Below, piece by piece: positions 6,043 through 50,862 of a DNA stretch of 64,000 bases. Source of the DNA: Methanobacteriota archaeon (GTDB lineage Archaea > Thermoplasmatota > Thermoplasmata > UBA10834). The translations under genes were made by a program, and so were the position numbers. How positions within the stretch are numbered: the first letter of the stretch is position 1; the number at the start of each line of letters is the position of its first letter. The stretch is from positions 1,293,051 to 1,357,050 of the forward strand of contig CP070748.1 in NCBI GenBank assembly GCA_020348345.1, in the 5' to 3' direction. The notes under the pieces are model-generated. The model ran no database searches. It saw nothing but the letters and a program-made list of their open reading frames with translations, and was not told the origin of the DNA.

Positions 6043-6107
6043 AAAGGCTTACTCATGCGCTCTCCAGAGGCACGGCCGGATGTTGCGAAGCCTACGCGGA
6101 GTCTTCG

Positions 6108-6686
6108 CTACTCGGACGATGATTGGACTCGGTGATCGACCAGCCTGCAGCCCGAATGGTCTGTGGTGATGTACTGGTGCTCAAACTCATCCTCCCAATA
6201 TGACGCGTATGATGCATCGCCATTCTCGAGCCTCTTCACCGCGGTCTTGGCCAATGTGTGGGCGAGCTCGGCGTCGACCTCTCGCCACGCCTCTCTCGCC
6301 CTTGGAGGCACGAAGAGGTACGTTGGCGATTCGTCTATGAATCTCGGAGGCAACCTTTCAAGGGTGAAGATGTCACAGGCCGTCTCGCCGCTCGGGATTT
6401 CGTCCGAGTTGAATTGAACTAGATGCATAAGCTCGTGGGCAATCGTGTAGTACGTCGGATACTGCCACAGGCCGCCCTTCCGCTTCCGAACCTCGAGATT
6501 CAGCCTGACGAACCCTCTGCTGGACTGGAAAACGAAGCCCTCGAAGAGCCGCGTCAGGCCGACCCTGACCTGTGGGCTCAGTTCTGGGAAGTAGGGCTGC
6601 AGAGTGTTCAATCTCAACGATATCTTCTCCCTGACCTCTATTGGAAGCCGGCGAGCTCTCCTGGTCCACGATACCTCCATTGGCAT
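6108..6686 (-). CDS. Hypothetical protein with an HExxH zinc-metallopeptidase-like motif
   Basis: 192 aa. YYTIAHELMHLVQF contains HELMH. GGGAG Shine-Dalgarno 5 nt upstream of the ATG. Same strand as nspC and upstream of it. Confidence 0.45.
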   Translation of the reverse strand: MPMEVSWTRRARRLPIEVREKISLRLNTLQPYFPELSPQVRVGLTRLFEGFVFQSSRGFVRLNLEVRKRKGGLWQYPTYYTIAHELMHLVQFNSDEIPSGETACDIFTLERLPPRFIDESPTYLFVPPRAREAWREVDAELAHTLAKTAVKRLENGDASYASYWEDEFEHQYITTDHSGCRLVDHRVQSSSE

Positions 6687-19313: not shown

Positions 19314-19633
19314 ACCATCCTGGGAGAAACAACGCTGAGTAAAAAACATTCTCTAGATGGATTGCGGTGCACGGAATGCAAACCGGCCTGTTCCGCGCTC
19401 ACAGTTCAGCTTCTGTGCTGTATTTCATCCCTGCTCCTGCAAGACGGTTACCGAGGAGGAGGAGGTGGTTCCTCGCTGTCCTCCAGAGAAGCCGTGCCCT
19501 CGCGCACCATCTTCCTGAGGTTCAGGTATAAGGCGATCATCACGGCGGTCGCTGAGCATTGGCCACCCGAAGAACTGAGAACGCAAGTTACTTGAAGAGC
19601 CTTCATGATTACCAAGGCTGTCGGGGGAATGGA

Positions 19634-20413: not shown

Positions 20414-20482
20414 GCTTGCGAGGCGCATCACACTACGGTTAAGTAGATTGTAGACGCTCCCCCGGATGATAGCAGGGATGTG

Positions 20483-23077: not shown

Positions 23078-23078
23078 A

Positions 23079-23708
23079 ATGGTGAGGCTTGGCATGGTGA
23101 TAGACCTCAAACGATGTGCGAGCTGTCACACATGCACCGCTGCCTGCAAGGCCGAGCACCACACGCCTCCTGGCGTCTTCTGGGCGAAGGTCATCAGAGT
23201 TGAATCAGGGAAATATCCGACCGTTATCAGGCAGGGATTGCCATTGCTATGCATGAACTGCGCAGAGCCCGAGTGCGAGAAGGTCTGCCCCACAGGGGCG
23301 ACGGAGAAGAGACCCGACGGAATCGTCACGGTCGATTCGAGCAAGTGCGTGGGATGCAGGTACTGCTCTGTAGCGTGTCCGTACGGCGCCCGATGCTTCG
23401 CCGAGGATTGGAAGGACTACTTCACCGGAGATCGTAGACCATCGTCCGCGTTCGCGGCGCATTCCAGAAAGATGTGGCTCGAAGAAAGCGACCGTGGGGT
23501 GGTGAGCAAGTGCAATTTCTGCGCGGACAGGATTGCAGAAGGCCAGAACCCGGCATGCGTCGACGCGTGCCCTTGCGAGGCGAGGGTCTTCGGAGATCTT
23601 GAAGATCCGGAATCAGAGGTATCGCAACTGATTAAGAAGAGGAGGGGTAGACAGCTCCATCCCGAATACGACACGGATGCCAGCGTGTACTATCTTCCTG
23701 CGAGGTGA
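23079..23708 (+). CDS. 4Fe-4S ferredoxin-type electron-transfer subunit (PsrB/DmsB/HybA-like)
   Basis: CASCHTCTAACK, CMNCAEPECEKVCP, CVGCRYCSVACP and CNFCADR...C..ACPCE cluster motifs. GGAGG 8 nt upstream of the ATG at 23079. Confidence 0.85.
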   Translation: MVRLGMVIDLKRCASCHTCTAACKAEHHTPPGVFWAKVIRVESGKYPTVIRQGLPLLCMNCAEPECEKVCPTGATEKRPDGIVTVDSSKCVGCRYCSVACPYGARCFAEDWKDYFTGDRRPSSAFAAHSRKMWLEESDRGVVSKCNFCADRIAEGQNPACVDACPCEARVFGDLEDPESEVSQLIKKRRGRQLHPEYDTDASVYYLPAR

Positions 23709-23752
23709 TCAGGGAATGCCGCGCACGATGATGATGAGGGACGGTGACTAGG

Positions 23753-24685
23753 ATGGACGTCATGCAGTTCGAGGATTTCAAACCCGGACCTCGCGCGCAG
23801 ATGGAGTGGGGATTTGGCGGCCGAAGGAGATGGCGTGACGGAGCCCTCCTCATGGCGCTCTTCCTCGGGGGCATAGGCGCCGGCCAGTTCGTCATATCGA
23901 CCTGGCTAATCGAATCTGTCACGAGCGCTTTGATTGGGCTGCTTATAGTGGGAGTCGGCAAGACCGTCGCGCACCTGATATACCTCGGACAGCCTGCCAG
24001 ATTCTACAGGCTATTCTTGAAACCAAGCACGTCCTGGATCAGCCGAGGACTTGTGTTCATGGTGGTCTTCGTCGCGTTCGGGGCGGCGTACCTAGCCCCG
24101 GAGATAGGTTTTGAATGGGTACCATGGACCATGGGCTCGTCACTTAGCGATGCGCTGTGGTTCGTGGCTCTGCTCGGAGCGGGGCTCGTTATGATCTACG
24201 ACGGCTTCGTTCTGGCGTCGTGCAAGTCAATCACATCGTGGAACACCGCGCTGATGCCGCCCCTGTTCTTCACCTACGCGTTGGCTGGCGGCGTGGCGAT
24301 GACATATCTCACTATGACAGCTACGGGAGGCGAGATACTGGACGAGAATACTATGCTCAGCCTCGACGCTGTGCTGCTGACAACCATGTTCGCTCTCATA
24401 GTGATATACGTGGCGAGCATGGCAGCGTCCACGGCGACCGCGAAGGAATCCGTAAGGAGACTGACATCAACCAGGCTGGCGATCGCGTTCGTGGGCCTGG
24501 CGATAGTCGCAGGCCTCATGGTTCCACTCGCCCTTACCTACCTGCACGAGGCATCAACCGAGGGAGCCGTTGCCTCCGCGCTCCTGGCGGCATCCGCTGT
24601 CCTGGAACTTGCGGGGGATCTGTCGGTCAGGCACTCTATACTGCGAGCGGGGCTGCACGCTCCGGCGCTCCCAGAAGGAGTATGA
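23753..24685 (+). CDS. NrfD/PsrC-like integral membrane anchor subunit
   Basis: About 8 predicted TM helices directly downstream of the A and B subunits. ATG at 23753; the track gives a GTG at 23744. Confidence 0.75.
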   Translation: MDVMQFEDFKPGPRAQMEWGFGGRRRWRDGALLMALFLGGIGAGQFVISTWLIESVTSALIGLLIVGVGKTVAHLIYLGQPARFYRLFLKPSTSWISRGLVFMVVFVAFGAAYLAPEIGFEWVPWTMGSSLSDALWFVALLGAGLVMIYDGFVLASCKSITSWNTALMPPLFFTYALAGGVAMTYLTMTATGGEILDENTMLSLDAVLLTTMFALIVIYVASMAASTATAKESVRRLTSTRLAIAFVGLAIVAGLMVPLALTYLHEASTEGAVASALLAASAVLELAGDLSVRHSILRAGLHAPALPEGV

Positions 24686-24713
24686 GATCGAAAGGAAGGC
24701 GAGCCATGTGAGT

Positions 24714-25508
24714 ATGAACGACGGCACGCATGACCTGGACATCATACGCATAGACGGTGGTAGAGCGGCGAAAGCAAGAGATGTTGTCAGCCGTGAATCG
24801 CGAATCAGCATCAGACTAAACGACTTCGAGGTCGTCGCCCTGATGTGCTCGCCGGTGAGCTTGAAGTACCTTGCAGTTGGCTTCCTGTTCTCGGAGGGCT
24901 TCGTCAACCGCAAGAAAGACGTGCATGCTGTCGATGTGGACGAGAAGGAGGAAGTCGTGAGAGTGACCGCAGACGCTGGTGAGCCGCCACCGCACGATTC
25001 CGCTGAAGGGCGGTTGATAGCCGCCAGCGGAGGCAGGGGATTGACAGGCGCTGATTTCGCCGAGAGGGCGAAGGCGCTCAAGTCCGGTTCTCAGCTCAAG
25101 ATACATCCCGACACGGTCATATCTCTCATGAAGGAGTTCCTAGGCAGATCGAAAGGCTTCGACCGGACTGGGGCGATCCACAGCGCCGCCCTCTGCGGTT
25201 CCAATCGGATCGAAGTCTTCCACGAGGATATTGGCCGACACAACGCCATCGACAAGGCGATTGGCCAGGCTGTACTCGAGGAAATGAGCATGGAAGACAA
25301 GATCCTCGTCACAAGCGGACGAATATCAGCCGAGATCCTTGTAAAGGCTGCCAGATGCGGAACGCCAATTGTGATGTCCAAATCGGCGCCGACAGATCTT
25401 GCTGTGAAGATAGCTTCGGAGGCCAATATCACCATTGTCGGCTTCGCAAGAGAGCAGAGGATGAACGTATACTCGAACGCCTGGAGAATCCAACACGAGG
25501 GACGGTAA
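24714..25508 (+). CDS. fdhD: FdhD-type sulfurtransferase (molybdoenzyme maturation)
   Basis: VALMCSP..LKYLAVGFLFSEG, GRHNAIDKAIG and SGRISAEILVKAARCGTPIVMSKSAPT. ATG at 24714; the track ORF starts at 24570, inside the NrfD-like gene. Confidence 0.85.
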   Translation: MNDGTHDLDIIRIDGGRAAKARDVVSRESRISIRLNDFEVVALMCSPVSLKYLAVGFLFSEGFVNRKKDVHAVDVDEKEEVVRVTADAGEPPPHDSAEGRLIAASGGRGLTGADFAERAKALKSGSQLKIHPDTVISLMKEFLGRSKGFDRTGAIHSAALCGSNRIEVFHEDIGRHNAIDKAIGQAVLEEMSMEDKILVTSGRISAEILVKAARCGTPIVMSKSAPTDLAVKIASEANITIVGFAREQRMNVYSNAWRIQHEGR

Positions 25509-25597: not shown

Positions 25598-27757
25598 TCA
25601 CGACAGGACTGCCTCGAGAGGAACGGCAGCGTTGGTCCACTCGCGCCTGAGCGTCTCGATATCCGCCAAGAACCACAGCTCCAACTCGTTGTCTCTGATA
25701 TCAGTCAGTCTGGCAAAGGCGTCATCCCTGGGCATCGAGCCGTCCAGGAGACCGAGATACACATCCTGAACGTCCACGTAGTCCTGCGCCTGATCGAAAT
25801 CGTCGCCCCAATACAGGTAACAGTCCACCATCTGGGCGAGGACCTCGTCGAAGACTTCGGCGCTGCAATACATGCCCCATTCCATCGAGCGGACGCGCTC
25901 CAAGGCCTTTATGGCTCCGCCAACCTGTCCGCCCTTGCCGACGAGCGTCTGTATCGCTGTGTTCACCGCCTCGAAGTCGGTCGCATGCTGGTGCGATCTC
26001 AACATAGGCTCCCATGACGCCATCATCCCCCCTTCACCGAGGGTGTACGGCGTGAAGATCCGCCTCATGTCGATGATAGCCCTATTGAGTTCGTCAGCCA
26101 GTTCGACGACGGCAGCTCGCTCGGCATCGTTTGTCGCAGCGGCGTACATAGCCTCGAGTTCGGCCGCGTACTCGTTGACTTCCAGCACTAGCGTTCTGAG
26201 AGCGGACAATGCCTCCAAAGCCCCGTCAATCTCCGCAGCTCGGATCGGCACCAGGTGCGCCTCTGTCGTAAGATGACCCTCAGCCCAGTCGCAGGCCGGG
26301 ATGAAGTCGAGGGGCACCACAATCGAGCTCTCTGCCCTCACAGCCATCAGAGTTGTGAAATCGGCGACCATTGCCAACATGTCCTCTGACTGTAATTCTA
26401 TCGTGTCGAACTGCGTGTGATAGTAGGGATCGAAACCGGGCCCCCAGACCATCTGGATCGCGGTTCCTCCACCCTTTGCTGCGAAGGACCACGCGTCGGT
26501 CCATGTCCAGGTAGGAACGTAGTAGCCGACGTCCATGTATCCAAGGTCGACTATGGCGTTCCTCACAAACGAGCTGACTTCCCATGATATCTCGAACCAG
26601 ACCTTGCCGCCCTCGCCTACCTTGGAGAAACTGCCACCGTCCAGGTTGAGCTCCATGACCAGGCCGTTCATGATGTCATTCTGGTGGGCACTGACGAACT
26701 CATACGATCCAACCAGCCAGTTGAACCATGTGCCGTCAGGTCCGCCAGTCTCCTCTGCGCCTACAGAGCAGAAGACCAACGACCTCTTATTCTCGTAGAT
26801 GCCAGCCTCCTTCGCCTCGGAGAACAATCTGGCCATCTCAAGCATGACAGCGATGGAAGAGCAGTCATCGTTTGATCCGTTCCACCATGTGTCTATGTGG
26901 CCTGATATCACGATATACTCATCGGGATGCGTGGTTCCTCTGAGGATTCCGGCAACATTCACTGACTCCGCATTCGGGTCGAAATCCACCCTTCCTTCGA
27001 TCTCGACGGTTACCGCTCCGTCCACGGCGATCAACTCCTGGATCCTCGCGGCGGAGTTGGGCGAAATCGATATCGCGGGTATCGGCGAGAACACCGAATC
27101 CTGCTTTATGGCCTCAGGGTGGTCAGCCCCTGTGAAGTAGCCGTAGAACATAGCGGCGGAGGCACCGTTCAACGCCGCCTCGAGAACTGGCACGTTCGGC
27201 CATCCCTGCGTGTTATCGTCTCTGTGTACGAGCGCGATGGCACCATCGAGCGGATCTGCGGCCTCGAAGTCGGCTGCTGTGCCATAGCCAACATCGACTA
27301 TCTCCGCTGTAAGGACTTTTCCAGTCTCATCAGTGCCGTGATAGTATTCCATCCCGAACTCGTCCAGCCCCCAAACCGAAGGACAATCGCCGTATGTCGT
27401 GGCGGGTATGTCCTCATCGCCATGGGATGTCATCTTGACAGTCGTCCCGTAGTGCTTCCAATTGGCGACACGGAAGGTCTCCTCCAGCACTTCGTCCAGA
27501 GACATGTTCTCGAGCTCGCCCAACACGTAGCGTTGGGCGCGCTTCTCCTCCTCAGAACCTGCGGTCTTCTCTCCGAGAGATGAGAGATATTGCAACTGCT
27601 CCCAAGCGTTCTCGTAGTCGATCATCCCCAGAAGCTCCGTTTCCGCCGGTGAAAGACCGAACGACACCCCGGAATTCGCCGACCGAACATCTGACGAAGC
27701 GGGCATCGCCGTCGCAACAAATAGAATCGCCAACATAATTCCTATCATCTTGCGCAC
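25598..27757 (-). CDS. Secreted M28-family metallopeptidase with a PA domain and a roughly 250-aa C-terminal extension
   Basis: Signal peptide (IGIMLAILFVATAMPASS). VISGHIDTWWNGSNDDCSSIAVMLEMARLF and FCSVGAEETGG zinc-site motifs. GTG start with GGGGGAG 5 nt upstream. Confidence 0.75.
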   Translation of the reverse strand: MRKMIGIMLAILFVATAMPASSDVRSANSGVSFGLSPAETELLGMIDYENAWEQLQYLSSLGEKTAGSEEEKRAQRYVLGELENMSLDEVLEETFRVANWKHYGTTVKMTSHGDEDIPATTYGDCPSVWGLDEFGMEYYHGTDETGKVLTAEIVDVGYGTAADFEAADPLDGAIALVHRDDNTQGWPNVPVLEAALNGASAAMFYGYFTGADHPEAIKQDSVFSPIPAISISPNSAARIQELIAVDGAVTVEIEGRVDFDPNAESVNVAGILRGTTHPDEYIVISGHIDTWWNGSNDDCSSIAVMLEMARLFSEAKEAGIYENKRSLVFCSVGAEETGGPDGTWFNWLVGSYEFVSAHQNDIMNGLVMELNLDGGSFSKVGEGGKVWFEISWEVSSFVRNAIVDLGYMDVGYYVPTWTWTDAWSFAAKGGGTAIQMVWGPGFDPYYHTQFDTIELQSEDMLAMVADFTTLMAVRAESSIVVPLDFIPACDWAEGHLTTEAHLVPIRAAEIDGALEALSALRTLVLEVNEYAAELEAMYAAATNDAERAAVVELADELNRAIIDMRRIFTPYTLGEGGMMASWEPMLRSHQHATDFEAVNTAIQTLVGKGGQVGGAIKALERVRSMEWGMYCSAEVFDEVLAQMVDCYLYWGDDFDQAQDYVDVQDVYLGLLDGSMPRDDAFARLTDIRDNELELWFLADIETLRREWTNAAVPLEAVLS

Positions 27758-29142: not shown

Positions 29143-30582
29143 ATGGCAGTTGCGCGAATCCGATTTCTGGATAGTGACGAGGAAGATCTGATAGACCAAC
29201 AGAGCATGGAATGCCTCGAGACCATCGGAGTCAAGGTCAAGAGCGCCAGGGTTCTCGAGATGCTCGGAGATGCCGGGGCAGACATTGACATGAAGACGCA
29301 GGTGGCAAGGCTGCCCGAGAGCATGGTGAAGGAAGCACTCGCACATGCGCCTAAGGAGATGATTCTTCATGGAAGGGACGCGAAGCACGACATGAGAATA
29401 CCAGTGAGTTCATGGCCCTACGTCGGCACTTCGGGCTTGGCAACCTATATCATCGATATCAATTCGGGAGAGAAGCGAGATTCGACTGTTTCCGACATAG
29501 CAGACTGCGTGAAGCTCGCGGACGCACTGTCTGGCGTGGACTATGTCCAGACTTCGCTCACGGCCACGGAGGTTCCGCAGCAAACACACGGGCTTCACGA
29601 ACTCTGGACAGCGCTCCAGAACACCACCAAGCATGTCCAGGGAATAGAGATATTCGATGCGGAAGACGCTCGGATGCAGGTCGAAATCGGAGCGCTGGTG
29701 GCAGGGGGCAAGAAGGAACTCGACAAAGAACCTCGCTTCACAGTCATACACTGCTCGATCGCCCCCCTTATGTTCGAGCACGATGCCGTCGAGGCAATGG
29801 TCGAATTCGCGAAGGCGGGGGTCCCAATCACTACGATGACCATGTCGCTCTCGGGTGGTACAGCGCCCGTCACTCTTGCCGGAACGCTGGTGAACGCCAA
29901 CTCCGAGAACCTGGCGAGCTTCGTGATAGGGCAGACCGCCAGAAAGGGCGCTCGAACGATTTACTGCTCATCATCCACACCCGTGAACATGACCACAGGC
30001 ATGATACACTATCAGAGCGCCAACCAGCCGCTGATAGCGGCTGGGCTAGCCCAGATGGCCCGCCGGTACGGAATTCCGTGTATGGTGGGCGACTGGGGCC
30101 TTAACGACACCGACGTTCCTGGTTTCCCGCACACGTTTTCCGAGACGATGGGAATCAGCCTGAGCACGATGTCAGGGACGGATATGATGGGAGGCGTCGG
30201 GTCATTGGACAATGCTAAGGGCATGGCACTTGAACAGGAAGTGATCGATTCCTATGTCTGGGAGAATGTTCGGATGCAGATGACCCCCTTCGAGATCAGC
30301 AATACGACTGCTGCGCTCGACGTGATCAAGGAGGTCGGGCACGGCAATACATTCCTCACCAACATACACACCGCTCGCAACTTCAAGAAGGAGGTCATCC
30401 AGAGGTCTTCGGACAGGGCGAGATTCGAGGCTACCATGTCGAAGGCGATGGTCGCGGAAGCCAAGGAGATCGCGGTCAGGCTGTTGAAGGAGCATGAAGT
30501 AACGCCCGTCGAGAATTCGATTGTTCGCGAAGGCGCTGATCTTTTGCGAAGCTACGAGAAGAAGCGCGCAAAGGCCGCATGA
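29143..30582 (+). CDS. MttB-superfamily (trimethylamine methyltransferase family) protein, non-pyrrolysine type
   Basis: 479 aa from MAVARIRFLDSDEEDLIDQQSMECLETIGVKV..., an N-terminus typical of the MttB family. The ORF is uninterrupted, with no in-frame TAG. Track ORF 29032 trimmed to the ATG at 29143. Confidence 0.8.
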   Translation: MAVARIRFLDSDEEDLIDQQSMECLETIGVKVKSARVLEMLGDAGADIDMKTQVARLPESMVKEALAHAPKEMILHGRDAKHDMRIPVSSWPYVGTSGLATYIIDINSGEKRDSTVSDIADCVKLADALSGVDYVQTSLTATEVPQQTHGLHELWTALQNTTKHVQGIEIFDAEDARMQVEIGALVAGGKKELDKEPRFTVIHCSIAPLMFEHDAVEAMVEFAKAGVPITTMTMSLSGGTAPVTLAGTLVNANSENLASFVIGQTARKGARTIYCSSSTPVNMTTGMIHYQSANQPLIAAGLAQMARRYGIPCMVGDWGLNDTDVPGFPHTFSETMGISLSTMSGTDMMGGVGSLDNAKGMALEQEVIDSYVWENVRMQMTPFEISNTTAALDVIKEVGHGNTFLTNIHTARNFKKEVIQRSSDRARFEATMSKAMVAEAKEIAVRLLKEHEVTPVENSIVREGADLLRSYEKKRAKAA

Positions 30583-34437: not shown

Positions 34438-35898
34438 CTAAGGCATGTCGAGTTCCGAAGGCTCGAGCTTCAGACCAATCGAAGCGGCATTCTTCTTGAA
34501 CCTCTTGATAAGCGCGGAATACTCCTTGGTCGGCCTCCTCGTTGACGCGTTCCAGCACTCCTGCAATGATTTGCCAAGAGGGGGTGAGGCAAGCCTCGTC
34601 TCGTACTTCTTCAGCAGCTTCTTGGCAATCTCATTCGCCTCGGACCGCTTCATACCTGCGATCGCGTGTCCAACCTCAGCGGATATCCTCGGCTCCACCG
34701 GCGTCACGCGGTCCTCGTACTTGTTTGTGGCAACGCCGACAGACTCCATCGACAGTCCCGAGGCGACGGCAGCCATGACGGATGCGGATGTCTCATACAG
34801 GCACATTGGAGTACATGGCCCCGCTGCTGTGTAGTTGAGACTGATGCTGAGAAGGTCTGTGTTCCGACTTATCGCCTGACCCATGGTGCTGATGGTCCAA
34901 AGCAACTCTCTGCTGCTGTTCGAAACGTAACGAAGGTGCAACGGAAACGGGATCAGGTAGCTCGTCTGCAGCGTGAGCATCCCCATCAGGTGCGTCGCTA
35001 CTGTGCCGACGGCCGTCCCCTCAGGCCCACCAGAATAGCCACCTACCAGCGGGGAGAAGTCCATGCCTATCGGAGCGCCAATCGAGTGTGCGATGACCGC
35101 CTTGTTCAGTCGGGCGAAGTCCACCTTCATAGGGTCCATGCTGGCAATCATGAACCCATCGGACGGCCTTAGACCAAACCTGGGATGTACGGCCGCGGCG
35201 AGCGACACGTCGGACTCTGCCGTCGATAGGGTGTTCATGAAAGGCTTGCCCTCCCTGCCAACACGGTTGCACGCCTCCCTGCCCAACACGGCGTTCCTCA
35301 TGGTCGCATACAGCTCCAGAGGAGATGCTGGTCTCACGCGCATTCCGCTGACCCTTGTTATTGCGGGAGTGGTGATCGAGTTGGTCTGCGGTATCTCCGC
35401 GAACCCCTCCATTAGCGTCAGGAAGGATTCGTCGCTCGACACAGGGCCCCCGGCAGCTCCGAGGAGACACCAAGGCGGTGCATTGTCCTCGACCTTCCTG
35501 GGAACCATCGCCTTCCTGTCCCTGCCCTCGCCGAAGAATACCTTGGATGGAGCGTTCCGCAATCCCTCCCGCACTTCAGATTCGGTGTAGGATATCACTC
35601 TGCTACTGTCCAAGCAGAATGCGCCCACATCAACAAGGAGTTCAAGGCCTGCTTCGAACAGATCGTCTGCGAGCGAGTTGTCCGCAGGTATCGGATTGTC
35701 GGGATCGAACTTGATCTTGTATTCCCTCACTTTTTCCTGCACCTTCGGAGCGTACCTCCGAAGTTGATAATCGTTCTCGCTCATCGGAGGACCATCGAGC
35801 GTCTTCTCCATAACGTCAAGTACTTGCACCACTACATACACCTCCAGCTCCTTCTTGCCGAACCCGACAGAACCTAGTCCACCATAAACCTTTGGCAT
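34438..35898 (-). CDS. MtmB (monomethylamine methyltransferase) family homologue without pyrrolysine
   Basis: 486 aa. Similar along its whole length to Methanosarcina MtmB as I recall it (YTESEV, FGEGRDRKAMVPRKV, NYTAAGPCTPMCLYETSASV, GKSLQECW). No in-frame TAG. The start lies 7 nt after the DDAH stop. Confidence 0.7.
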   Translation of the reverse strand: MPKVYGGLGSVGFGKKELEVYVVVQVLDVMEKTLDGPPMSENDYQLRRYAPKVQEKVREYKIKFDPDNPIPADNSLADDLFEAGLELLVDVGAFCLDSSRVISYTESEVREGLRNAPSKVFFGEGRDRKAMVPRKVEDNAPPWCLLGAAGGPVSSDESFLTLMEGFAEIPQTNSITTPAITRVSGMRVRPASPLELYATMRNAVLGREACNRVGREGKPFMNTLSTAESDVSLAAAVHPRFGLRPSDGFMIASMDPMKVDFARLNKAVIAHSIGAPIGMDFSPLVGGYSGGPEGTAVGTVATHLMGMLTLQTSYLIPFPLHLRYVSNSSRELLWTISTMGQAISRNTDLLSISLNYTAAGPCTPMCLYETSASVMAAVASGLSMESVGVATNKYEDRVTPVEPRISAEVGHAIAGMKRSEANEIAKKLLKKYETRLASPPLGKSLQECWNASTRRPTKEYSALIKRFKKNAASIGLKLEPSELDMP

Positions 35899-35905
35899 TG
35901 GAGAA

Positions 35906-36652
35906 TCAGAGGAGTATGGATAGGCACGTGAGAGCGCCGTCGCACTTCTCGAATTCGCTGACTTCTACAGAGATCACATCGAATCCTGCACGTTTCACCA
36001 AACGCTGCGATTCTGTCAGTCCGGCAGGCATCAGGACCGAATCACCGATAGCCAAAGTGTCCGCGGCGTATTCCTCTCGTCTGGGCACGACAATCACGCC
36101 CATACCTTCAAGTACGGGGTGTCTGGCGTATCTTTCCGTTGATATGAACGTATCTTCACCGAGGTAAGTGACGTGGCTCTTGAGATGCATCATGCCTTCA
36201 TCGCTGATCGTGTCGACCTTCACCCCAAGCCATTCGCCCATCTGACGGATACCCTCCGCGTTCGTCCGCTGACTCTCACCACATATGAGACGGTCTGGAA
36301 GATGCACGACGTCGCCCCCTTCGATGGTTGCTGGCGCTTCAGCTCGTTTCGTGACAAGGTATTCGCCAAGCGCGCTCTCGACCGCGCTTTCCTCTCCTCT
36401 GCGACTTGGCGCGCCCATGCGAGTGATGAGTGCCTTCCGACCATGCACGACTGCGCAGTCCTCGACGAAGCAGGCGTCAGGGTGACTGTCGTCTTGGGGA
36501 AGAGACAAGACCTCCAATCCGAGGTTGGCAAGGACTGATCTATAGACCTCGTGCTGCATCTGAGCTCGCTTCAGATCAATGCTGTTTCGCAAAGGATGGC
36601 AAGACAGGCATTCCACGTAACTTCTGCCCGGCGGGCGGACGAGCGCTTTCAT
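35906..36652 (-). CDS. N(G),N(G)-dimethylarginine dimethylaminohydrolase (DDAH) family amidinohydrolase
   Basis: ACFVEDCAVV, APSRRGEE, ESQRTNAEGIRQM, MMHLKSHVTYL (catalytic His) and DGALTCLSILL (catalytic Cys) parallel Pseudomonas DDAH. ATG at 36652 has GGTGA upstream. An alternative ATG at 36706 forms an ATGA overlap with the upstream gene. Confidence 0.75.
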   Translation of the reverse strand: MKALVRPPGRSYVECLSCHPLRNSIDLKRAQMQHEVYRSVLANLGLEVLSLPQDDSHPDACFVEDCAVVHGRKALITRMGAPSRRGEESAVESALGEYLVTKRAEAPATIEGGDVVHLPDRLICGESQRTNAEGIRQMGEWLGVKVDTISDEGMMHLKSHVTYLGEDTFISTERYARHPVLEGMGVIVVPRREEYAADTLAIGDSVLMPAGLTESQRLVKRAGFDVISVEVSEFEKCDGALTCLSILL

Positions 36653-36702
36653 GAACTTCACCGTAGTCACCAGTCTTCTTATAGCCGCTGCAGGATAGGA
36701 GG

Positions 36703-37113
36703 TCATTCTGCGCTCTTCTTCCGGGCCTTGGCCTCCTTCTTGAGCCTCTTCTGCTCGGCCTTGGCAATCTTCTTGAGGGCCTTGCTGTCAGTCTCCATCG
36801 CAAGCGGCAGCTCATCGGAAGGTGAGGGGCGAGCGGGCTCTGCCTCGTGTGCCGGATCGGGCTCTCCGAGGTGAGCTTGAGCCGCACGAATGTCCGAAGG
36901 CGATTCATCGACGGTCGCCCCTCGGGCCTTCTGAGGAACAAGCTTCCATACCAGCAACACGACCAGAATCAGGAGTCCAATTCCAAGGAAGGCGGCGAAG
37001 TACCATTGCATCTGCTCCATCACGGCGTAGGCCAACGTGATGACCGCTGCAGCAATGAGGCCTCCCAGCACCTTCTTGAAGACGTCCTTCGTATCCTCTC
37101 CGGTCCACGGCAT
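36703..37113 (-). CDS. Small membrane protein with 2 TM helices and a Lys-rich C-terminal tail
   Basis: 136 aa. LGGLIAAAVITLAYAV and FAAFLGIGLLILVVLLVW helices, then KALKKIAKAEQKRLKKEAKARKK. First gene of the DDAH/MtmB-like operon. Confidence 0.45.
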   Translation of the reverse strand: MPWTGEDTKDVFKKVLGGLIAAAVITLAYAVMEQMQWYFAAFLGIGLLILVVLLVWKLVPQKARGATVDESPSDIRAAQAHLGEPDPAHEAEPARPSPSDELPLAMETDSKALKKIAKAEQKRLKKEAKARKKSAE

Positions 37114-37186: not shown

Positions 37187-38317
37187 ATGAAGATGGTGCT
37201 GTGGCGGATGAGCAGGACTGAAATCGACCAGGTCATCGATCAATCCACACAGAGGCTCCTCAAGGTCGCGACTCCGCCGGTGAAATTCTGGCTCTTAGTC
37301 TACATCATGCAGAAGGGACCTGAAGATCATGACGTGCAGAAGGCATTGGAAGAGTCCAGGCAATACAAACCCAGGGTTAGGCTACTTCGTAAGCTCAGGG
37401 AGGACGGAACCTGGCCAATCTCCGGGCCGAGAAAGGCTCAGGAGGACGCAGGCCCGGGGCCTCCCTACGGATGGACCTACATCACCATGCTCAGGAACCT
37501 CTATTGGCTATACGAGTACTGCGCTGATTCCGACGAAGGACACATAGAGGAATCGCTGGAGAAGATCCTGTCATGGCAGAGCGATGAAGGGTTCATCGAG
37601 GGGGCGGAAGCGGACATGATCCCGAGACCCTACTATAGTGGTTTTGCGCTGTCAATCCTGAGAGCGTTTGGGAAACGGCAATCTGATCCGAGAATCAGCC
37701 GATTGGCAGATTGGCTGTTTCGGATGCAACGTCGCGATGGTGGCTGGAACATCCCGTACATCCAGGATATGAGATATGATTCCGAGTACAAGTTCATGCG
37801 GTTGGAGGATTTCAAGGAGCTGGTACGTCAGGGGAAGACCAAGCCGTACCTCTCTGAAGATTACAACGACATCCCGAGCTGCTACTGGACCAGCATCAGT
37901 GCACTTAGAGGGTTATCCTGGATGCCAGACCACGGGCAGATACATGCCATAAAACGCTGCGGAGATTTCATTCTTGGTGGTTTCTTCAAGAGGAATCGCC
38001 ACCCGGGGTTCTACAGGTCCGAGGTTAACTGGACTATACTCAAATTCCCGACATTCTACGGCAGCGGATTGACCGCACTGGACCACCTGGTCAGCCTCGG
38101 CTTCGGACGGCAGGATCCCCGAATGGATGCGCCCATAAGATGGCTTCTCGGCGCTCGATCGAAGGACGGCTTCTGGTATCAGACTGACAGACCTCACGCG
38201 ATGAATGATCAATGGCTCACGGTGATGGCGCTGACCATACTCGCGTTCTATGCACGGGAACCCACGTCGACAATCGCGAACGCGCGAGAATCGCCGCTCG
38301 AGGCTTTCAGAGGGTGA
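37187..38317 (+). CDS. Hypothetical protein with prenyltransferase/terpene-cyclase-like alpha-alpha toroid repeats
   Basis: Recurring (D/E)G(G/T/F)W units: REDGTWPISG, SDEGFIEG, RRDGGWNIPY and SKDGFWYQ. Confidence 0.4.
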   Translation: MKMVLWRMSRTEIDQVIDQSTQRLLKVATPPVKFWLLVYIMQKGPEDHDVQKALEESRQYKPRVRLLRKLREDGTWPISGPRKAQEDAGPGPPYGWTYITMLRNLYWLYEYCADSDEGHIEESLEKILSWQSDEGFIEGAEADMIPRPYYSGFALSILRAFGKRQSDPRISRLADWLFRMQRRDGGWNIPYIQDMRYDSEYKFMRLEDFKELVRQGKTKPYLSEDYNDIPSCYWTSISALRGLSWMPDHGQIHAIKRCGDFILGGFFKRNRHPGFYRSEVNWTILKFPTFYGSGLTALDHLVSLGFGRQDPRMDAPIRWLLGARSKDGFWYQTDRPHAMNDQWLTVMALTILAFYAREPTSTIANARESPLEAFRG

Positions 38318-39464
38318 GCAGCTCCTCGCTGACCTCGAGATGCTTTGCCGGGAGTCGCGAGACATACTTCTCCGCCGGCAGCTGCTCAGGGACGAGCACG
38401 CCCTTGTCGGATATCTCGCCTGAAAGCATCATCTCGGCGGCGACCGCTCCTCCCGTCCCGACGACATAACCGGTGGCATTGCTCCTCGATATCTCGTATG
38501 CCTTCTCATGCGACATAGTCGTCCAGACCTTGATCATGACTCTCTGGCCGTCCTTCTGACCCGTGACCTCAACCACGATGCCTGCGAATCCCTTCACCTT
38601 GCCGATGAGGTCTACGGGTCTGGGCATCAAAGACACGACTACGTCGAGCGGGCGCACCATGACGCCTTTGACATCTACCGGTTTGAGGCTGTGCATGCCC
38701 AATTTCCTCAGGGTGTTGGCAACCCGAGCGAATCCATCATCAACGGCAATTCTGAAATCAGCATACTTCAATCCCTCAATGTACTGGGACATGAGATAGG
38801 TCTCCTCATGAATGGTGTTATACACCGGAAGCGGTCCGATAGGTTGCGGAAATTCGTATATCTGTCTCTCGTTGAGCGGAGGCACGTATGTGATCTTTCC
38901 GTCCTTGAACACGGCCGCTGGTACGGTCACCTCCTCCAGCATCTCGGCAGGAGACCACAGCGTGAAGAAGTCATACCCATCGGCCACCGCAGTGTCGCCG
39001 TCCATCACCCTCGCACTCTCTGCGCTGTCCAGCTTGTTCGCAGCGTACCGAGCGAACACGTCGGATATGCCAGGATCCGAGCCCATCGATGTCAATATGG
39101 TAATGCCTCGATCCTTGCTCTTCCCATCGACTTCTTCGAACTCCTCCATCGAGTCCACGGACATCGAGTAGTCTATGTAGCTCACGCCGATATCGACAGC
39201 TGCATTGATAACCTTCTTGTTCAGTTCCGCGGGAATAGAAGCGATCAGGAGGTCCGCGTCCTTCAGGAGCGCGCGCAACGCATCGGCGTCGGTTGCATCG
39301 ACCTTCTGCACGGATATCTTGCTGCTCTTCAACCTCTCCGCCATCGCCCCGGCGGCGTCGGTGCGGTTGTCAGCCAAAACAAGTTCGTTCACGAGTCCGT
39401 TCTTCTCAAGGTGTTCAGCGCACACAAGCCCAGTTATTCCACATCCTAGTTGCACCACTCTCAT
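38307..39464 (-). CDS. Saccharopine dehydrogenase family NAD(P)-dependent oxidoreductase (candidate carboxy(nor)spermidine dehydrogenase)
   Basis: N-terminal Rossmann motif MRVVQLGCGITG. Length and C-terminal domain are typical of the saccharopine dehydrogenase family. Confidence 0.7.
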   Translation of the reverse strand: MRVVQLGCGITGLVCAEHLEKNGLVNELVLADNRTDAAGAMAERLKSSKISVQKVDATDADALRALLKDADLLIASIPAELNKKVINAAVDIGVSYIDYSMSVDSMEEFEEVDGKSKDRGITILTSMGSDPGISDVFARYAANKLDSAESARVMDGDTAVADGYDFFTLWSPAEMLEEVTVPAAVFKDGKITYVPPLNERQIYEFPQPIGPLPVYNTIHEETYLMSQYIEGLKYADFRIAVDDGFARVANTLRKLGMHSLKPVDVKGVMVRPLDVVVSLMPRPVDLIGKVKGFAGIVVEVTGQKDGQRVMIKVWTTMSHEKAYEISRSNATGYVVGTGGAVAAEMMLSGEISDKGVLVPEQLPAEKYVSRLPAKHLEVSEELLTL

Positions 39465-42051: not shown

Positions 42052-42223
42052 GAAGCGTGAGAAGCACCAGCTATGTATTAAACAGATATGATACTACAGT
42101 CGTTCGAACGAGTCGCCATGATGGCGAACCGTGTACGAGTGATTGCCCTTCCCATTCCACAATCCCCAAACGCTTTTATATTCCATGGCAATTCGTTCGG
42201 TTCGGTTCTGGGAGATAGGTGTC

Positions 42224-44020
42224 ATGAGAGTGCTGAGGGTTGATCTGACTGCAGAAGAGTTCGCTGACCAGGAGCTTTCGAAGGAGGTTGACCGAGCCTA
42301 CCTCGGAGGAAGAGGGCTCGGCGCCAGGTTGCTGTATGACGAGAACAGGCCCGGCATAGACCCCTTCGATCCCGAGAACAGACTGATATTCATGACCGGA
42401 CCATACACCGGCACATACGGCTCGTTCACTGCGTTCTACAACGTGACCACTAAGTCGCCCTTGACCGGCACGATACTCTCCGCCCATTCGGGCGGTCATT
42501 GGGGACCGATGCTGCGCAGAACAGGATATGATGGCATTGTGTTCACGGGGCGGTCGTCGGAGCCGGTGTACCTGTTGCTCAATGATGGTGGCCCCGAGCT
42601 GAGAGATGCGAGGACCCTCTGGGGCAAGGACGTGTTCGAGACCATCGACTCCCTCGAGGAGGCACACACGCGCTCGAAGGCAGCCGTTATCGGGCCCGCA
42701 GGAGAGAAACGCGTCAGGATAGCGGCAATCATGAACGATCATCACCGCGCCGCTGGCCGAGGTGGTGCAGGAGCGGTAATGGGCTCAAAAGGTCTGAAGG
42801 CCGTTGTTGTCCACGGCACCAAGGATGTGCCACAAGCAGATCCTGAAAAGCTGAGGGAGACCTTCAAAGAGGCAACGAGAACCGTCAAGGAGAAGTCGGC
42901 GGCCTTCGCAAAATACGGTACCTCGATGGTGGTGGGCATCACTGGCAAGGCTGGCGCTATTCCAACGAGGAATCTCCAGACAGGATACTTCCCAGATTTC
43001 GAGAGAATCGGGGGCGATGCTCTCATCGACAACCACTTCGTGAAGAACATGGCGTGTGCCAGATGTCCGCTCCATTGTGGTAACGCGACGAAGGCGGAGA
43101 AGGACTATCAGGCGGAGACGGAAGGACCCGAGTACGAAACACTCGCGATGTTTGGCGCCAATCTTGAGAACACTAACCTGGAATCGATCATAATGGCGAA
43201 CAACCTGTGCAACCAGTATGGCATAGACACCATCTCATGCGCTGACACGATCGCATGCGCTGTGGAGATGTTCGAAAAGCGGGTCATATCGGAGAAGGAC
43301 ACCGGAGGCCTCAGTCTGGCATGGGGCAACCACAGTTCGATGGTGAAGCTTGTGGAGCTTACCGGCAAGGCTGACGGATTCGGAGCGATCATCGGCGAGG
43401 GGTCGAAGAGACTGGCTGCGAGGTTCGGCAAGGAGGCCGAACAGTATGCGATGAACGTCAAGGGGATGGAGTTTCCGGGATACGACCCTCGAGGGATACA
43501 GGGGATGTCGCTCGCGTTCGCCACGTCCACCAGAGGCGCTTGCCATCTCCGAGCGACCATGTACGTTCCCGAACTGTTTCAGGGTGTCCTGGATCGCTTC
43601 ACCGTCAAGGGCAAGGCATCGACGCTCAAGGAACTCCAAGAGTTGTTCACAGTTCTCGACTGCATGGTCCTATGCAAGTTCGGTGCGAGGAATGCCTTCT
43701 CCAACTCTTGGGAGAACATGGTGATGCTCGTCAACGCGGCTACGGGCAGCGACTACACGGTCGAGCAGCTGAAGCAGGTAGGGGAGAGAGTATGGACGCT
43801 TGAGAGGATGTACAATTTGAGGGAGGGTTTCTCCAAGGAAGACGACACCCTGCCTGAGAGATTGTTCACAACTCCGATACACGACGGCCCATCCAAAGGG
43901 GCCGTGGTGGACAAAGAGGATTTCATCAACGAACTCGAGGCCTACTACGACCTATGGGGTTGGTCGAAGGAGGGCGTCCCGGGCAAGGAAGCTCTCAAGC
44001 GCCTGGGATTGTCTCTCTGA
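42224..44020 (+). CDS. aor: Tungsten-containing aldehyde:ferredoxin oxidoreductase
   Basis: MRVLRVDLT...YLGGRGLGARLLYDE N-terminus, CARCPLHCG cluster motif and about 600 aa in length. GGAG upstream of the ATG at 42224; the track ORF starts at 42143. Confidence 0.9.
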   Translation: MRVLRVDLTAEEFADQELSKEVDRAYLGGRGLGARLLYDENRPGIDPFDPENRLIFMTGPYTGTYGSFTAFYNVTTKSPLTGTILSAHSGGHWGPMLRRTGYDGIVFTGRSSEPVYLLLNDGGPELRDARTLWGKDVFETIDSLEEAHTRSKAAVIGPAGEKRVRIAAIMNDHHRAAGRGGAGAVMGSKGLKAVVVHGTKDVPQADPEKLRETFKEATRTVKEKSAAFAKYGTSMVVGITGKAGAIPTRNLQTGYFPDFERIGGDALIDNHFVKNMACARCPLHCGNATKAEKDYQAETEGPEYETLAMFGANLENTNLESIIMANNLCNQYGIDTISCADTIACAVEMFEKRVISEKDTGGLSLAWGNHSSMVKLVELTGKADGFGAIIGEGSKRLAARFGKEAEQYAMNVKGMEFPGYDPRGIQGMSLAFATSTRGACHLRATMYVPELFQGVLDRFTVKGKASTLKELQELFTVLDCMVLCKFGARNAFSNSWENMVMLVNAATGSDYTVEQLKQVGERVWTLERMYNLREGFSKEDDTLPERLFTTPIHDGPSKGAVVDKEDFINELEAYYDLWGWSKEGVPGKEALKRLGLSL

Positions 44021-47061: not shown

Positions 47062-47511
47062 TCACAGCGATTCGAGCTTGGCCTTGATCGCCTCGTTCTC
47101 CTTGCCCATCTTGTCGAGTATCCTCGCAGCTTCGGCCAGGAGGGACTGAGCGGTTTTCGACGAATCGACATAGAATCTTGACGATGTCTCTTCGATCTTC
47201 CCTGCGAAGGCTTTCGCGCCAGCCATGTCCAGCCCCTCGGGAACCTCGGTCTCGACCACGTAGCTGCTGCTGTCCAGATCCTGGATGGGCTCAAGTATCA
47301 TCTCGTTGAGCTTCTCCCTCCGTGTGTGCTCCAGGAGTTCGCTCCGTTTCCTGTGCGTCTCAGAGAGCGCCTTCAGAGGTTCCTGTGCCGACGCGAGGTT
47401 GGGTCTCCCAGCGAGCTCGTCATAGACGTTCGATGCCGCCTTCTCGAGTTCCAGAGCGAATCTGATCACGGAGCCGAACGATGTGCACTCAGGAAAGTCG
47501 TACTCCGTCAT
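47062..47511 (-). CDS. Hypothetical helical protein (about 149 aa), translationally coupled to the aldehyde dehydrogenase gene
   Basis: TGATG stop/start overlap at 47509-47513. Helical, acidic composition. No family recognised. Confidence 0.4.
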   Translation of the reverse strand: MTEYDFPECTSFGSVIRFALELEKAASNVYDELAGRPNLASAQEPLKALSETHRKRSELLEHTRREKLNEMILEPIQDLDSSSYVVETEVPEGLDMAGAKAFAGKIEETSSRFYVDSSKTAQSLLAEAARILDKMGKENEAIKAKLESL

Positions 47512-48992
47512 CAGAACCACCTTGTTATCACAACCTTCCTGTCCGTGAAGAACGAGATGGCGTCTCTGCCCTGGCCGTGCAGGTCTCCGAAGAATGAGTC
47601 TTTGTAGCCAGCGAATGGGAAGTACGCCATCGCGGCCACTATGCCTATGTTTATGCCGATGTTTCCAGCCTGCACCTTGTATCTGAAGTCGCGGGCGTGT
47701 CTTCCGCTCTGCGTGTAAATGGATGCGGCGTTGCCGAACGGGTTCTTGTGAATGAAGTCGATCGCGTCATCCAATGAATCCATCCTGAGGTACGACACCA
47801 CGGGGCCGAAAATCTCCTCCTGGGCGATCTTCATGTCCGGTGTCACGCCATCAATGACGGTCGGTCCGACGAAATGCCCCTTCTCGTAACCGGGAACCTT
47901 TGCCCCCCTGCCGTCGATCAGGATCTTCGCGCCGTCTGCCTCGGCGCCATCTATGTAGCCGATGACCTTCTCCTTTGCCTTTGCGGACACGACGGGCCCC
48001 ATGTTGGTGTTCTCGTCAAGGCCGTAGCCCATCCTGATCCTCTTGGACGCTTCGACGAACTTCTCAATCAGCGGTTCCGCAACATCTCCGATTGCCACGA
48101 GGTTCGAGCCCGCGAGGCATCTCTGGCCTGCGCAGCCGTAGAACGACGCCAGCATGTTGGAAACGGTCCTGTTGAGGACCGCATCAGGCATGACCACGAG
48201 AGAGTTCTTCGCTCCGCCCTGAGCCTGGACTCGCTTGCCGTTCTCGCCGCACTTTTTATAGATGTATCTCGCGACGGGCGTTGATCCGACAAACGAGATA
48301 CCTTTCATGTGAGGATGATCCATCATCGTGTCGGAGACATCGCGGCTGCCGTTCACCAGGTTTATGACGCCCGGAGGGAACCCGGCCTTGTCGATCAGTG
48401 AGAACAGGTACCATTGCGTCAGCGGAACCTGGCTGGATGATTTGACGATGTAGGTGTTGCCCGAGGCGACCGCGTACGGCCAGAACCAGTACGGTATCAT
48501 CGCCGGGAAGTTGAAGGGAGCTATCACGCCGAACACGCCAAGGGGCGATATCACAGCATCCTCATCGATGCCCTGGGCGGCACCGTCTTCGAGGTTATAT
48601 CCCATCATCAACGATGGAATGCCCGCGGCAACCTCGACGTTCTCGATGGTTCTCCTCGTTTCTCCTCTGGCCTCATCGATCGTCTTGCCCTGCTCCTGCA
48701 CCATTATCCTTGCGACGTCCTCGAAGTTGGCCTCGATCAGCTCCTTGAGCTTGAAGAAGATCCTCGCCCTCGTTATCGGCGGCGTTTCCCGCCATGAGAG
48801 CCAGGCATCCTGGGCAGCTTCGATGGCGGCCTTCGTCTCATCGGCAGTGGACATAGGAACCTTCCCTATGATGCCACCTGTCGAGGGGTTCTCGATGTCC
48901 AGATCTTTGGACGATGTCGATTCAACCCACTCGCCGTTCACATAGTTCTTGATCCTTCCGTAATCCTTCTTAACCTCGGGTAGCAAAGCCAT
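47511..48992 (-). CDS. Methylmalonate/malonate-semialdehyde dehydrogenase (CoA-acylating) type aldehyde dehydrogenase
   Basis: KNYVNGEWVES, FVGSTPVARYIY, RVQAQGGAKNSLVV (the GAKN variant typical of MMSDH) and CAGQRCLA (catalytic Cys). AGGAGA Shine-Dalgarno upstream. Confidence 0.8.
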   Translation of the reverse strand: MALLPEVKKDYGRIKNYVNGEWVESTSSKDLDIENPSTGGIIGKVPMSTADETKAAIEAAQDAWLSWRETPPITRARIFFKLKELIEANFEDVARIMVQEQGKTIDEARGETRRTIENVEVAAGIPSLMMGYNLEDGAAQGIDEDAVISPLGVFGVIAPFNFPAMIPYWFWPYAVASGNTYIVKSSSQVPLTQWYLFSLIDKAGFPPGVINLVNGSRDVSDTMMDHPHMKGISFVGSTPVARYIYKKCGENGKRVQAQGGAKNSLVVMPDAVLNRTVSNMLASFYGCAGQRCLAGSNLVAIGDVAEPLIEKFVEASKRIRMGYGLDENTNMGPVVSAKAKEKVIGYIDGAEADGAKILIDGRGAKVPGYEKGHFVGPTVIDGVTPDMKIAQEEIFGPVVSYLRMDSLDDAIDFIHKNPFGNAASIYTQSGRHARDFRYKVQAGNIGINIGIVAAMAYFPFAGYKDSFFGDLHGQGRDAISFFTDRKVVITRWF

Positions 48993-50830: not shown

Positions 50831-50862
50831 CACTCTCGATTGACCACGCCTCCGCAGGCGCG

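Follow-up and report, generated by a model that had tools for sequence, protein, structure and literature searches.

What does a homologue of the monomethylamine methyltransferase MtmB do when its gene has no pyrrolysine (Pyl) codon and lies beside a gene for a DDAH-family hydrolase? The question is raised by a 64-kb stretch of DNA (hereafter, the window) from contig CP070748.1 (GCA_020348345.1) of a UBA10834 Thermoplasmata archaeon with a genome of about 1.7 Mb. DDAH enzymes convert methylarginine into citrulline plus mono- or dimethylamine, and an initial annotation of the window, made from its letters without database searches, had suggested that the two neighbours could harvest methyl groups from methylated arginine. 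We find that the MtmB-like protein is best explained as an MtmB-fold substrate:corrinoid methyltransferase (MT1), predicted to work without pyrrolysine, and that the DDAH/MtmB-like pair is real, conserved and non-obligate. A route leading from methylarginine through a corrinoid protein to tetrahydrofolate is a reasonable hypothesis predicted from these genes, and we give it a probability of roughly one in three. The features on which the argument turns are the following:

34438-35832, minus strand: pyrrolysine-free MtmB-family gene, 464 aa from a probable GTG start; a Group I, or 'orphan', paralogue (see below)
35236-35238, minus strand: ATG codon at the Pyl202-equivalent position (Met221 in 486-aa numbering, Met199 in 464-aa numbering)
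35839-35845, minus strand: Shine-Dalgarno-like GGAGGTG, read from the sequence, 6 nt before the probable GTG start at 35832
35884-35893, minus strand: AAAGGTTTAT, a conserved element between DDAH and the MtmB-like gene, some 50 nt ahead of the start of the latter
35906-36652, minus strand: DDAH-family (pentein) hydrolase gene, 248 aa from ATG 36652
36703-37113, minus strand: small membrane protein gene, 136 aa; the core is hydrophobic and the tail rich in Lys

A member of the MtmB family with methionine at the pyrrolysine site

The longest open reading frame (ORF) of the MtmB-like gene (34438-35898, minus strand) encodes 486 aa from ATG 35898 and covers the whole of the Pfam MtmB profile (PF05369, positions 1-450 of 450; 324.8 bits against a cut-off of 25, E 1e-96). 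With phmmer it matches residues 12-456 of Methanosarcina barkeri MtmB (1L2Q) at E 1.7e-68. We predicted its structure with AF2 from an alignment of 141 sequences (pLDDT 96.7) and compared the model by Foldseek. It superimposes on the three M. barkeri MtmB structures 1L2Q, 1NTH and 1TV2 with TM scores of 0.94-0.95 and an rmsd of 1.4 Å over 452 columns, and reaches a TM score of only about 0.5 with MttB-family structures (MttB/MtgB). Profile searches and predicted structure thus both uphold the family and the fold, and the earlier claim that this ORF tracks MtmB from end to end stands.

The start codon requires a correction. Since the orthologues are 460-464 aa long and begin with MVQ(I/L/V)LDVM, we place the start at GTG 35832. 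The GGAGGTG element precedes this codon, and G-rich counterparts occupy the equivalent place in orthologous loci.

Both by phmmer to 1L2Q and in a mafft profile alignment, Pyl202 of the M. barkeri enzyme aligns with Met221, which lies in GREGKPFMNTLSTAES, and the GRxG motif that precedes the site is conserved between MtmB and the MtmB-like protein. The ORF has no internal TAG, its sole TAG being the stop codon, as had been read from the sequence at the outset. The methionine is invariant in the 26 Thermoplasmata homologues that we aligned (26/26), and with the following asparagine it forms a Met-Asn pair that is invariant in the clade. Across the wider non-Pyl superfamily, surveyed with 125 full-length representatives in a mafft profile alignment, the column holds M, L, I, V, G or T. 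This superfamily is large, comprising 974 clusters at 50% identity with E ≤0.001, and 220 with E ≤1e-30. Outside the tight Thermoplasmata clade, whose members are at least 64% identical, identity to the window protein drops to 37-42% in the closest full-length relatives, which belong to Bathyarchaeota, Thermoleophilia and Spirochaetota.

The use of TAG in the genome is less telling than the initial annotation had taken it to be. The five TAG stops that it cited are all present, and TAG terminates 11 of 39 window genes (28%), but use as a stop does not by itself rule out Pyl decoding (PMC12626013). In the window, which covers 64 kb of the genome of about 1.7 Mb, we found no tRNA gene and, among the 48 window proteins scanned against Pfam, no Pyl-related family. 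The basal non-methanogenic Thermoplasmata clades from which several MtmB-like loci come are reported to lack mcr and pylBCDS. The deciding fact on pyrrolysine is the sense codon in the MtmB-like gene itself.

These data also bear on the possibility that the genome decodes Pyl, has a canonical mtmB with its TAG codon and carries the present gene as a decayed paralogue. We could find no support for this beyond the fact, just mentioned, that TAG stops do not strictly exclude Pyl decoding. Ratios of non-synonymous to synonymous substitution (dN/dS) are 0.03-0.07 for the MtmB-like gene (with dS saturated between the genomes compared), and this strong purifying selection indicates that it is not a decayed copy. 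More than 440 homologues keep the frame without internal stops, and the Met-Asn pair is invariant at the Pyl-equivalent site. The protein is only about 31% identical to M. barkeri MtmB, against 37-42% to other non-Pyl clades; the related basal clades are reported without pylBCDS, and TAG ends more than a quarter of the window genes. Together, purifying selection, intact frame and Met-Asn effectively refute decay, and we consider this explanation negligible. One candidate for a Pyl-type nearest relative, P0144 (51% identical over the C-terminal half), was rejected; it is a fragment on a 913-nt contig and is uninformative because it begins at the same Met-Asn.

The DDAH gene and its linkage to the MtmB-like gene

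The longest ORF of the neighbour (35906-36706, minus strand, 266 aa) matches Pseudomonas aeruginosa DDAH (3RHY) over residues 19-264 at E 2e-45 and human DDAH1 at E 1e-27, and passes the Pfam thresholds for DDAH_eukar and ADI. With P. aeruginosa DDAH (PA1195; 1H70, 3RHY, 3BPB) it shares its length, its catalytic residues and its arginine-binding residues. Catalytic Cys261, His174 and Glu129 (266-aa numbering) correspond to P. aeruginosa Cys249, His162 and Glu114, and are invariant in all eight archaeal homologues of our alignment; the His codon is at 36185-36187 (in MMHLKS) and the Cys codon at 35924-35926 (in ALTCLS), so that the assignment to the DDAH family and the retention of both residues, already noticed by eye, are borne out. 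P. aeruginosa L18, D60, E65/D66, R85 and R132, which, going by the 1H70 structure, we take to hold the substrate at its amino-acid end and its guanidino group, are likewise all conserved in the window protein and invariant in the archaeal alignment. Given the conservation of catalytic and substrate-binding residues, it is plausible that the neighbour is a working DDAH-type hydrolase acting on an N-omega-substituted L-arginine. The gene is under purifying selection of its own (dN/dS 0.05-0.08). Its orthologues are mostly 248-251 aa long, and the closest (87% identical) begins with MKALVRPPG, equivalent to ATG 36652, which is the likely start; this is less certain than for the MtmB-like gene, a few relatives being called at 266 aa. 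As a separate observation, the archaeal clade carries a CxSCHP motif (residues 33-38 of the 266-aa ORF) where P. aeruginosa reads GLTSSHLG; the first Cys and S-HP are invariant in the eight aligned DDAHs, and the motif puts two extra cysteines beside the substrate-binding Leu18.

Using the family alignment, we recovered 69 genomic MtmB-like loci and scored the proximity of DDAH within 10 kb. All 69 come from Thermoplasmata metagenome-assembled genomes (MAGs), including those of UBA10834, UBA9653, RBG_13_57_23 and RBG_19FT_COMBO_56_21. A DDAH gene lies within this distance in 16 of the 69; at random, with two or three copies per genome and genome sizes of 1.4-2 Mb, some 1-4% of loci would be expected to have one. 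In 10 of the 16, DDAH is immediately upstream on the same strand, with MtmB-like proteins 79-91% identical to that of the window; this immediate linkage is found in about 10 species-level genomes, and the same arrangement recurs on four metagenome contigs (L076, L080, L161 and L162). The pair stays intact while its flanks change, with insertions upstream (L005, L012-L014, L161) and different genes downstream. Among the DDAH-linked genomes synonymous sites are saturated, and dN/dS for the two genes together spans 0.03-0.08.

Other arrangements also bring the two genes together. DDAH may be followed by a small opposite-strand gene and then by the MtmB-like gene (L039, L077), or by ArsR and TP_methylase genes on the minus strand, a corrinoid-protein gene and the MtmB-like gene, with DDAH 2.8 kb upstream of the corrinoid-MtmB unit (L061, L063, L068, L070). 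In L144 it is divergent from an aminotransferase-corrinoid-MtmB-MtmB unit, and in L074 a distance of 7 kb separates the two genes. Overall, DDAH proximity takes four or five arrangements and occurs in both paralogue groups described below, and in a DDAH tree the MtmB-linked proteins fall in several clades, mixed with unlinked ones. The question of whether the adjacency holds in relatives thus has a split answer: close relatives retain it, and the two genes meet again in other arrangements, but most relatives lack it. We lean slightly towards there being some real functional association between DDAH and MtmB-like genes.

Several of these loci have features worth recording in themselves. L144 (4904-7709, minus strand) has tandem MtmB-like genes after a single corrinoid gene and a class III aminotransferase gene. 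The DDAH of L063 (6447-7210) contains an in-frame stop and a frameshift, and the MtmB-like genes of L074 (10001-11376) and L073 (10001-11343) are split into pieces; these are pseudogenes or assembly errors. In L070, a Thermoplasmatota MAG, a heliorhodopsin gene (5525-6379, minus strand) lies directly beside DDAH. ArsR-type regulators are encoded near the pair both in the window and in L070; a comparison showed that the two are different proteins.

The initial annotation had described the membrane-protein, DDAH and MtmB-like genes as tightly packed. They are indeed three consecutive ORFs on the minus strand, but the ATGA overlap (36703-36706) and the 7-nt gap between DDAH and the MtmB-like gene hold for the longest ORFs only: with the orthologue-based starts at 35832 and 36652 the spacers are likely 73 nt between DDAH and the MtmB-like gene and 50 nt between the membrane-protein gene and DDAH. 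The longer spacer contains AAAGGTTTAT, upstream of which lies ATG 35898. The element is present in the DDAH-linked loci examined, and in L080, where the spacer has grown to 168 nt, its distance from the MtmB-like start is unchanged; TATA-like elements also occur upstream of other Group I genes. By its sequence AAAGGTTTAT is a putative archaeal BRE/TATA-type promoter, which suggests that the MtmB-like gene has a promoter of its own. Because of this element, and because an opposite-strand gene parts the pair in L039 and L077, the picture of a tightly packed operon is weak, and the two genes are probably same-strand neighbours with separate promoters rather than a proven operon. The intervening ORF (L039, 9700-9849, minus strand, and its L077 equivalent) encodes 49 aa and is a conserved zinc ribbon (CPHCG...CVNCG).

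Members of the DDAH-linked clade encode the small membrane protein upstream of the pair, with 45-58% identity; Pfam and NCBIfam scans gave it no family match. In L005, L012-L014 and L161 it is parted from DDAH by one to five additional genes, and its association with the pair is only loose.

Corrinoid supply and possible substrates

A tree with mapped gene neighbours splits the Thermoplasmata MtmB-like genes into two groups. In Group II, a gene for a 215-aa corrinoid protein ends 4-10 nt before the MtmB-like start (41 of the 69 loci), and EamA-MttB-MttB is often found upstream, as in the EamA-MttB-MttB-corrinoid-MtmB cluster of CP070736. Group I genes, among them that of the window, have no adjacent corrinoid gene. 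Five assemblies (CP070732, CP070736, JAOTTD01, JBFFML01 and JBFESP01) contain both a window-type copy and a Group II cluster. Since Group I genes stand alone, the window copy would have to rely on a corrinoid protein whose gene lies elsewhere, and such a gene is very probably present in the same genome: the corrinoid protein P0345, which shares 85% identity with its counterpart in the nearest relative (L047), is encoded on a contig of 1,698,361 bp, exactly as long as the contig that carries the MtmB-like and DDAH proteins of the window. The corrinoid proteins in these loci score best to MtgC/MtbC models, and in L001 a methyl-tetrahydrofolate:corrinoid methyltransferase (NF005719, 266.9 bits against a cut-off of 259) is encoded 8 kb from the Group II cluster.

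Groups I and II have in common the GR(E/Q)GxPxMN motif around the Pyl-equivalent site. About 11 residues that are conserved inside each group set the two apart. Several map to barrel strands (D280 in Group I against C; AS252-253 against CC), and T302/H, Y314/W and S353/N also separate Group I from Group II; for this reason their substrates may differ. We also compared the separating residues with M. barkeri MtmB, which matches Group I at none and Group II at three, so that a special likeness of Group I to the M. barkeri enzyme was discarded. The acidic D280 aligns with either D256 or E257 of M. barkeri MtmB, depending on the aligner.

The two-enzyme route, our preferred reading, would run in three steps in a non-methanogenic, protein-degrading Thermoplasmata archaeon. 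DDAH would hydrolyse methylarginines freed by proteolysis, releasing citrulline and mono- or dimethylamine; the Group I MtmB-like enzyme would then move the methyl group of that amine onto a Co(I)-corrinoid, on a protein encoded elsewhere; and a pterin-dependent methyltransferase would hand the methyl group to tetrahydrofolate. Three parts of this scheme are inferences: what the substrate is, that the corrinoid protein comes from a gene elsewhere, and that tetrahydrofolate takes up the methyl group. The window is in keeping with a protein-degrading lifestyle, containing C11 and M28 peptidases, an oligopeptide transporter, aminotransferases and an aldehyde:ferredoxin oxidoreductase. The more far-reaching proposal, that orphan Group I paralogues as a class activate DDAH-released mono- or dimethylamine without Pyl and so form a new catabolic route from methylarginine to citrulline and one-carbon (C1) units, seems to us unlikely.

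Several observations weigh against the two-enzyme route. Methyl transfer from mono- and dimethylamine is thought to need pyrrolysine for activation of the amine. As to the linkage, 53 of the 69 MtmB-like loci have no DDAH within 10 kb, many Group I loci among them. In a metagenome survey of 28 loci with a DDAH at least 50% identical, only four have an MtmB-like gene, many of the contigs being short; further DDAH loci stand alone or beside aminotransferases or peptidases. This DDAH-side survey is also blurred by the presence of close DDAHs (about 60% identical) in Bathyarchaeota. Since close relatives have wider stretches of synteny in common, the persistence of the pair is in part a matter of shared ancestry. 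The putative promoter of the MtmB-like gene and the opposite-strand ORF of L039 and L077 point in the same direction. The exact substrate of the DDAH homologue is not certain either, since it misses the NCBIfam equivalog cut-offs for dimethylargininase, in which it differs from the P. aeruginosa enzyme (183 bits against 340 for NF045660; 168 against 450 for NF045658). Finally, family scans of the window proteins detected no corrinoid, MT2 (pterin-methyltransferase) or activase gene in the 64 kb, nor is there a corrinoid gene within 10 kb of the MtmB-like gene in orthologous loci.

The lack of corrinoid genes nearby would also suit a protein that kept the MtmB fold for ligand binding or another reaction and carries out no corrinoid methyl transfer at all. 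Group I genes are never found with an adjacent corrinoid gene, but the window protein is 64-75% identical to the Group II paralogues, whose translation is coupled to that of corrinoid genes, and has the same active-site motif, the gene is under strong purifying selection, and the genome very probably supplies a corrinoid protein from elsewhere. We regard the loss of methyltransferase function as improbable.

MtqB of Methanococcoides methylutens Q3c, the only characterised non-Pyl MtmB, prefers the quaternary amines tetramethylammonium and choline (PMC13044021), a further point against the route, and also demethylates monomethylamine slightly, which is a precedent for it (PMC13044021). By analogy, the window protein could be a quaternary-amine:corrinoid methyltransferase acting on tetramethylammonium, choline or a similar compound, in which case DDAH would be an unrelated neighbour that persists through common ancestry or because genes for the breakdown of nitrogen compounds are loosely co-regulated. 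This would account for the many MtmB-like loci without DDAH and DDAH loci without an MtmB-like gene, for the seemingly separate promoter, and for the GR(E/Q)GxPxMN motif shared as a whole by both groups. Against it stand the four or five arrangements in which DDAH occurs near MtmB-like genes of both groups, well above chance, and the surroundings, in which we saw neither a transporter for choline or tetramethylammonium nor any other gene of such a pathway; moreover, the specificity of MtqB is not simply transferable, since the nearest relatives outside Thermoplasmata are at most 42% identical. We consider this explanation possible, albeit doubtful. Taken generally, a substrate of the MtmB-like enzyme unrelated to DDAH is nearly as likely as the methylarginine route.

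Gene order in Group II suggests yet another role, that of a later-step demethylase. The substrate of such an enzyme would be a betaine-type compound already stripped of some of its methyl groups (an N-methyl amino acid or amine, secondary or tertiary); the enzyme would remove a further one, in series with Pyl-free MttB-like enzymes, and leave a primary amine for a class III aminotransferase. The EamA-MttB-MttB-corrinoid-MtmB clusters would fit this sequence, as would the corrinoid-MtmB-MttB-aminotransferase order in a Thermoleophilia relative and the aminotransferase-corrinoid-MtmB-MtmB unit of L144; the window itself has an MttB-like gene 4 kb off, GABA-type aminotransferases, an aldehyde dehydrogenase and the aldehyde:ferredoxin oxidoreductase. 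This context, however, belongs to Group II and not to the orphan Group I copy of the window; the group-specific residues (D280 and AS252-253 among them) suggest that the substrates may differ, and the pairing with DDAH is left unexplained. A later-step role is therefore unlikely for the window enzyme.

A last alternative keeps methylarginine as the substrate. The MtmB-like enzyme would remove the methyl group directly from the guanidino nitrogen of N-omega-methylarginine, yielding arginine, and DDAH would be a parallel or overflow branch. The genomic association of the two genes speaks for this as much as for the two-enzyme route, and methylguanidinium is already cationic, like the quaternary amines. 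A neutral guanidine, on the other hand, is a very poor leaving group by established chemistry, the MtmB and MttB families offer no precedent, and the two enzymes would compete for one substrate. We judge direct demethylation a long shot.

Known systems and other genes of the window

The window protein shares the predicted fold of M. barkeri MtmB (EC 2.1.1.248) from end to end, but has Met (ATG) in place of Pyl202 (TAG), its gene lacks an adjacent mtmC-type corrinoid gene, and its host is non-methanogenic. Like MtqB, it combines the MtmB fold with the absence of pyrrolysine (PMC13044021, 2026); sulfur-containing residues are reported near the ligand in MtqB (PMC13044021), and the window clade has Met at the Pyl site. 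We draw this likeness from the description of MtqB. MtqB is encoded beside its corrinoid protein MtqC and feeds methanogenesis via MtqA/MtbA, whereas the window gene has DDAH as its neighbour in a non-methanogen. Non-Pyl systems of the MttB superfamily (MtgB/MtgC, glycine betaine) follow the same logic, in that an enzyme lacking Pyl, though homologous to one that has it, methylates a corrinoid protein and, in non-methanogens, tetrahydrofolate receives the methyl group; MttB/MtgB are nevertheless a different TIM-barrel family.

Pyl-free MtmB homologues, and mtmB genes in non-methanogenic Thermoplasmata, are already known. The view that Pyl-free relatives are well known only for the MttB family has been overtaken by MtqB, characterised in 2026. 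mtmB and mttB genes of the same family and lineages as here have been described in non-methanogenic Thermoplasmata (Ca. Gimiplasmatales/UBA10834, COMBO-56-21 and RBG clades; Zinke et al., Hu et al., PMC11264602). Within their available text, these papers use the genes as mtmB markers and mention neither the split into orphan and corrinoid-linked genes nor the DDAH neighbour, and tetrahydrofolate-based methylotrophy is proposed there for these clades, which are basal to Methanomassiliicoccales. Our literature search returned no paper linking DDAH with MtmB, MttB or corrinoid methyl transfer, in agreement with the initial annotation, and the DDAH link of a Pyl-free MtmB appears to be unreported so far.

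With numerous Pyl-free MtmB homologues and one known function among them (MtqB, 2026; PMC13044021), a conserved neighbour that releases mono- or dimethylamine offers a concrete and cheap substrate hypothesis for an abundant sediment clade. If it were true, pyrrolysine would not be strictly needed for methylamine methyl transfer, and methylarginine, a post-translational modification of detrital protein, would be tied to C1 metabolism in anoxic sediments. Should the methylarginine idea fail, the split between corrinoid-linked and orphan genes would still refine the reading of Thermoplasmata "mtmB" matches, which are no evidence of monomethylamine use.

Two further sets of genes touch on the proposed metabolism:

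29143-30582, plus strand: MttB-family methyltransferase gene without a pyrrolysine codon, encoding 479 aa when read from the probable start at ATG 29143 (29032 is the start of the longest ORF)
13452-14612 (plus), 14780-16054 (minus), 17283-19349 (minus), 25598-27757 (minus) and 489-3386 (plus): two clostripain-type C11 peptidases, two M28 peptidases and an oligopeptide ABC transporter

The MttB-like gene, about 4 kb from the MtmB-like gene, likewise has no corrinoid gene beside it and contains no in-frame TAG. It scores 209 bits to Pfam MTTB and 361.9 bits to NCBIfam trimeth_pyl, below the cut-off of 525, and matches MttB (7XCL) at 5e-59 and MtgB (9YCE) at 4e-43 in the Protein Data Bank. Conserved at 84-87% in L003 and L007-L009 and missing from that position in L005 and L011-L015, it may be part of the same methyl-transfer repertoire as the MtmB-like gene.

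A saccharopine-dehydrogenase-like gene (38307-39464, minus strand), directly upstream of the MtmB-like gene in L018 and L020, was considered as the true partner of Group I. We dropped it and read it as polyamine synthesis because of its carboxynorspermidine-synthase-like score and the presence in the window of carboxynorspermidine decarboxylase (nspC, 4861-6042, minus strand; 456 bits, above the cut-off), 32 kb away. It is a recurrent neighbour of Group I MtmB-like genes. So is the gene at 37187-38317 (plus strand), which encodes a 376-aa protein with weak alpha/alpha-toroid (squalene-hopene cyclase or prenyltransferase) similarity and is also conserved in the DDAH-free loci L019 and L031.

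Elsewhere in the window, genes for a molybdopterin oxidoreductase, a 4Fe-4S subunit, an NrfD-type membrane anchor and FdhD lie together at 20480-25508 (plus strand) and make up a Psr/Phs/DMSO-reductase-type respiratory complex. Two tandem class III aminotransferases of the GABA/acetylornithine type (49460-50971 and 50863-52245, both minus strand) overlap by 109 nt as ORFs. Near them are a gene of the methylmalonate-semialdehyde-dehydrogenase family (47511-48992, minus strand) and the aldehyde:ferredoxin oxidoreductase gene (42143-44020, plus strand), and together these enzymes could catabolise omega-amines.

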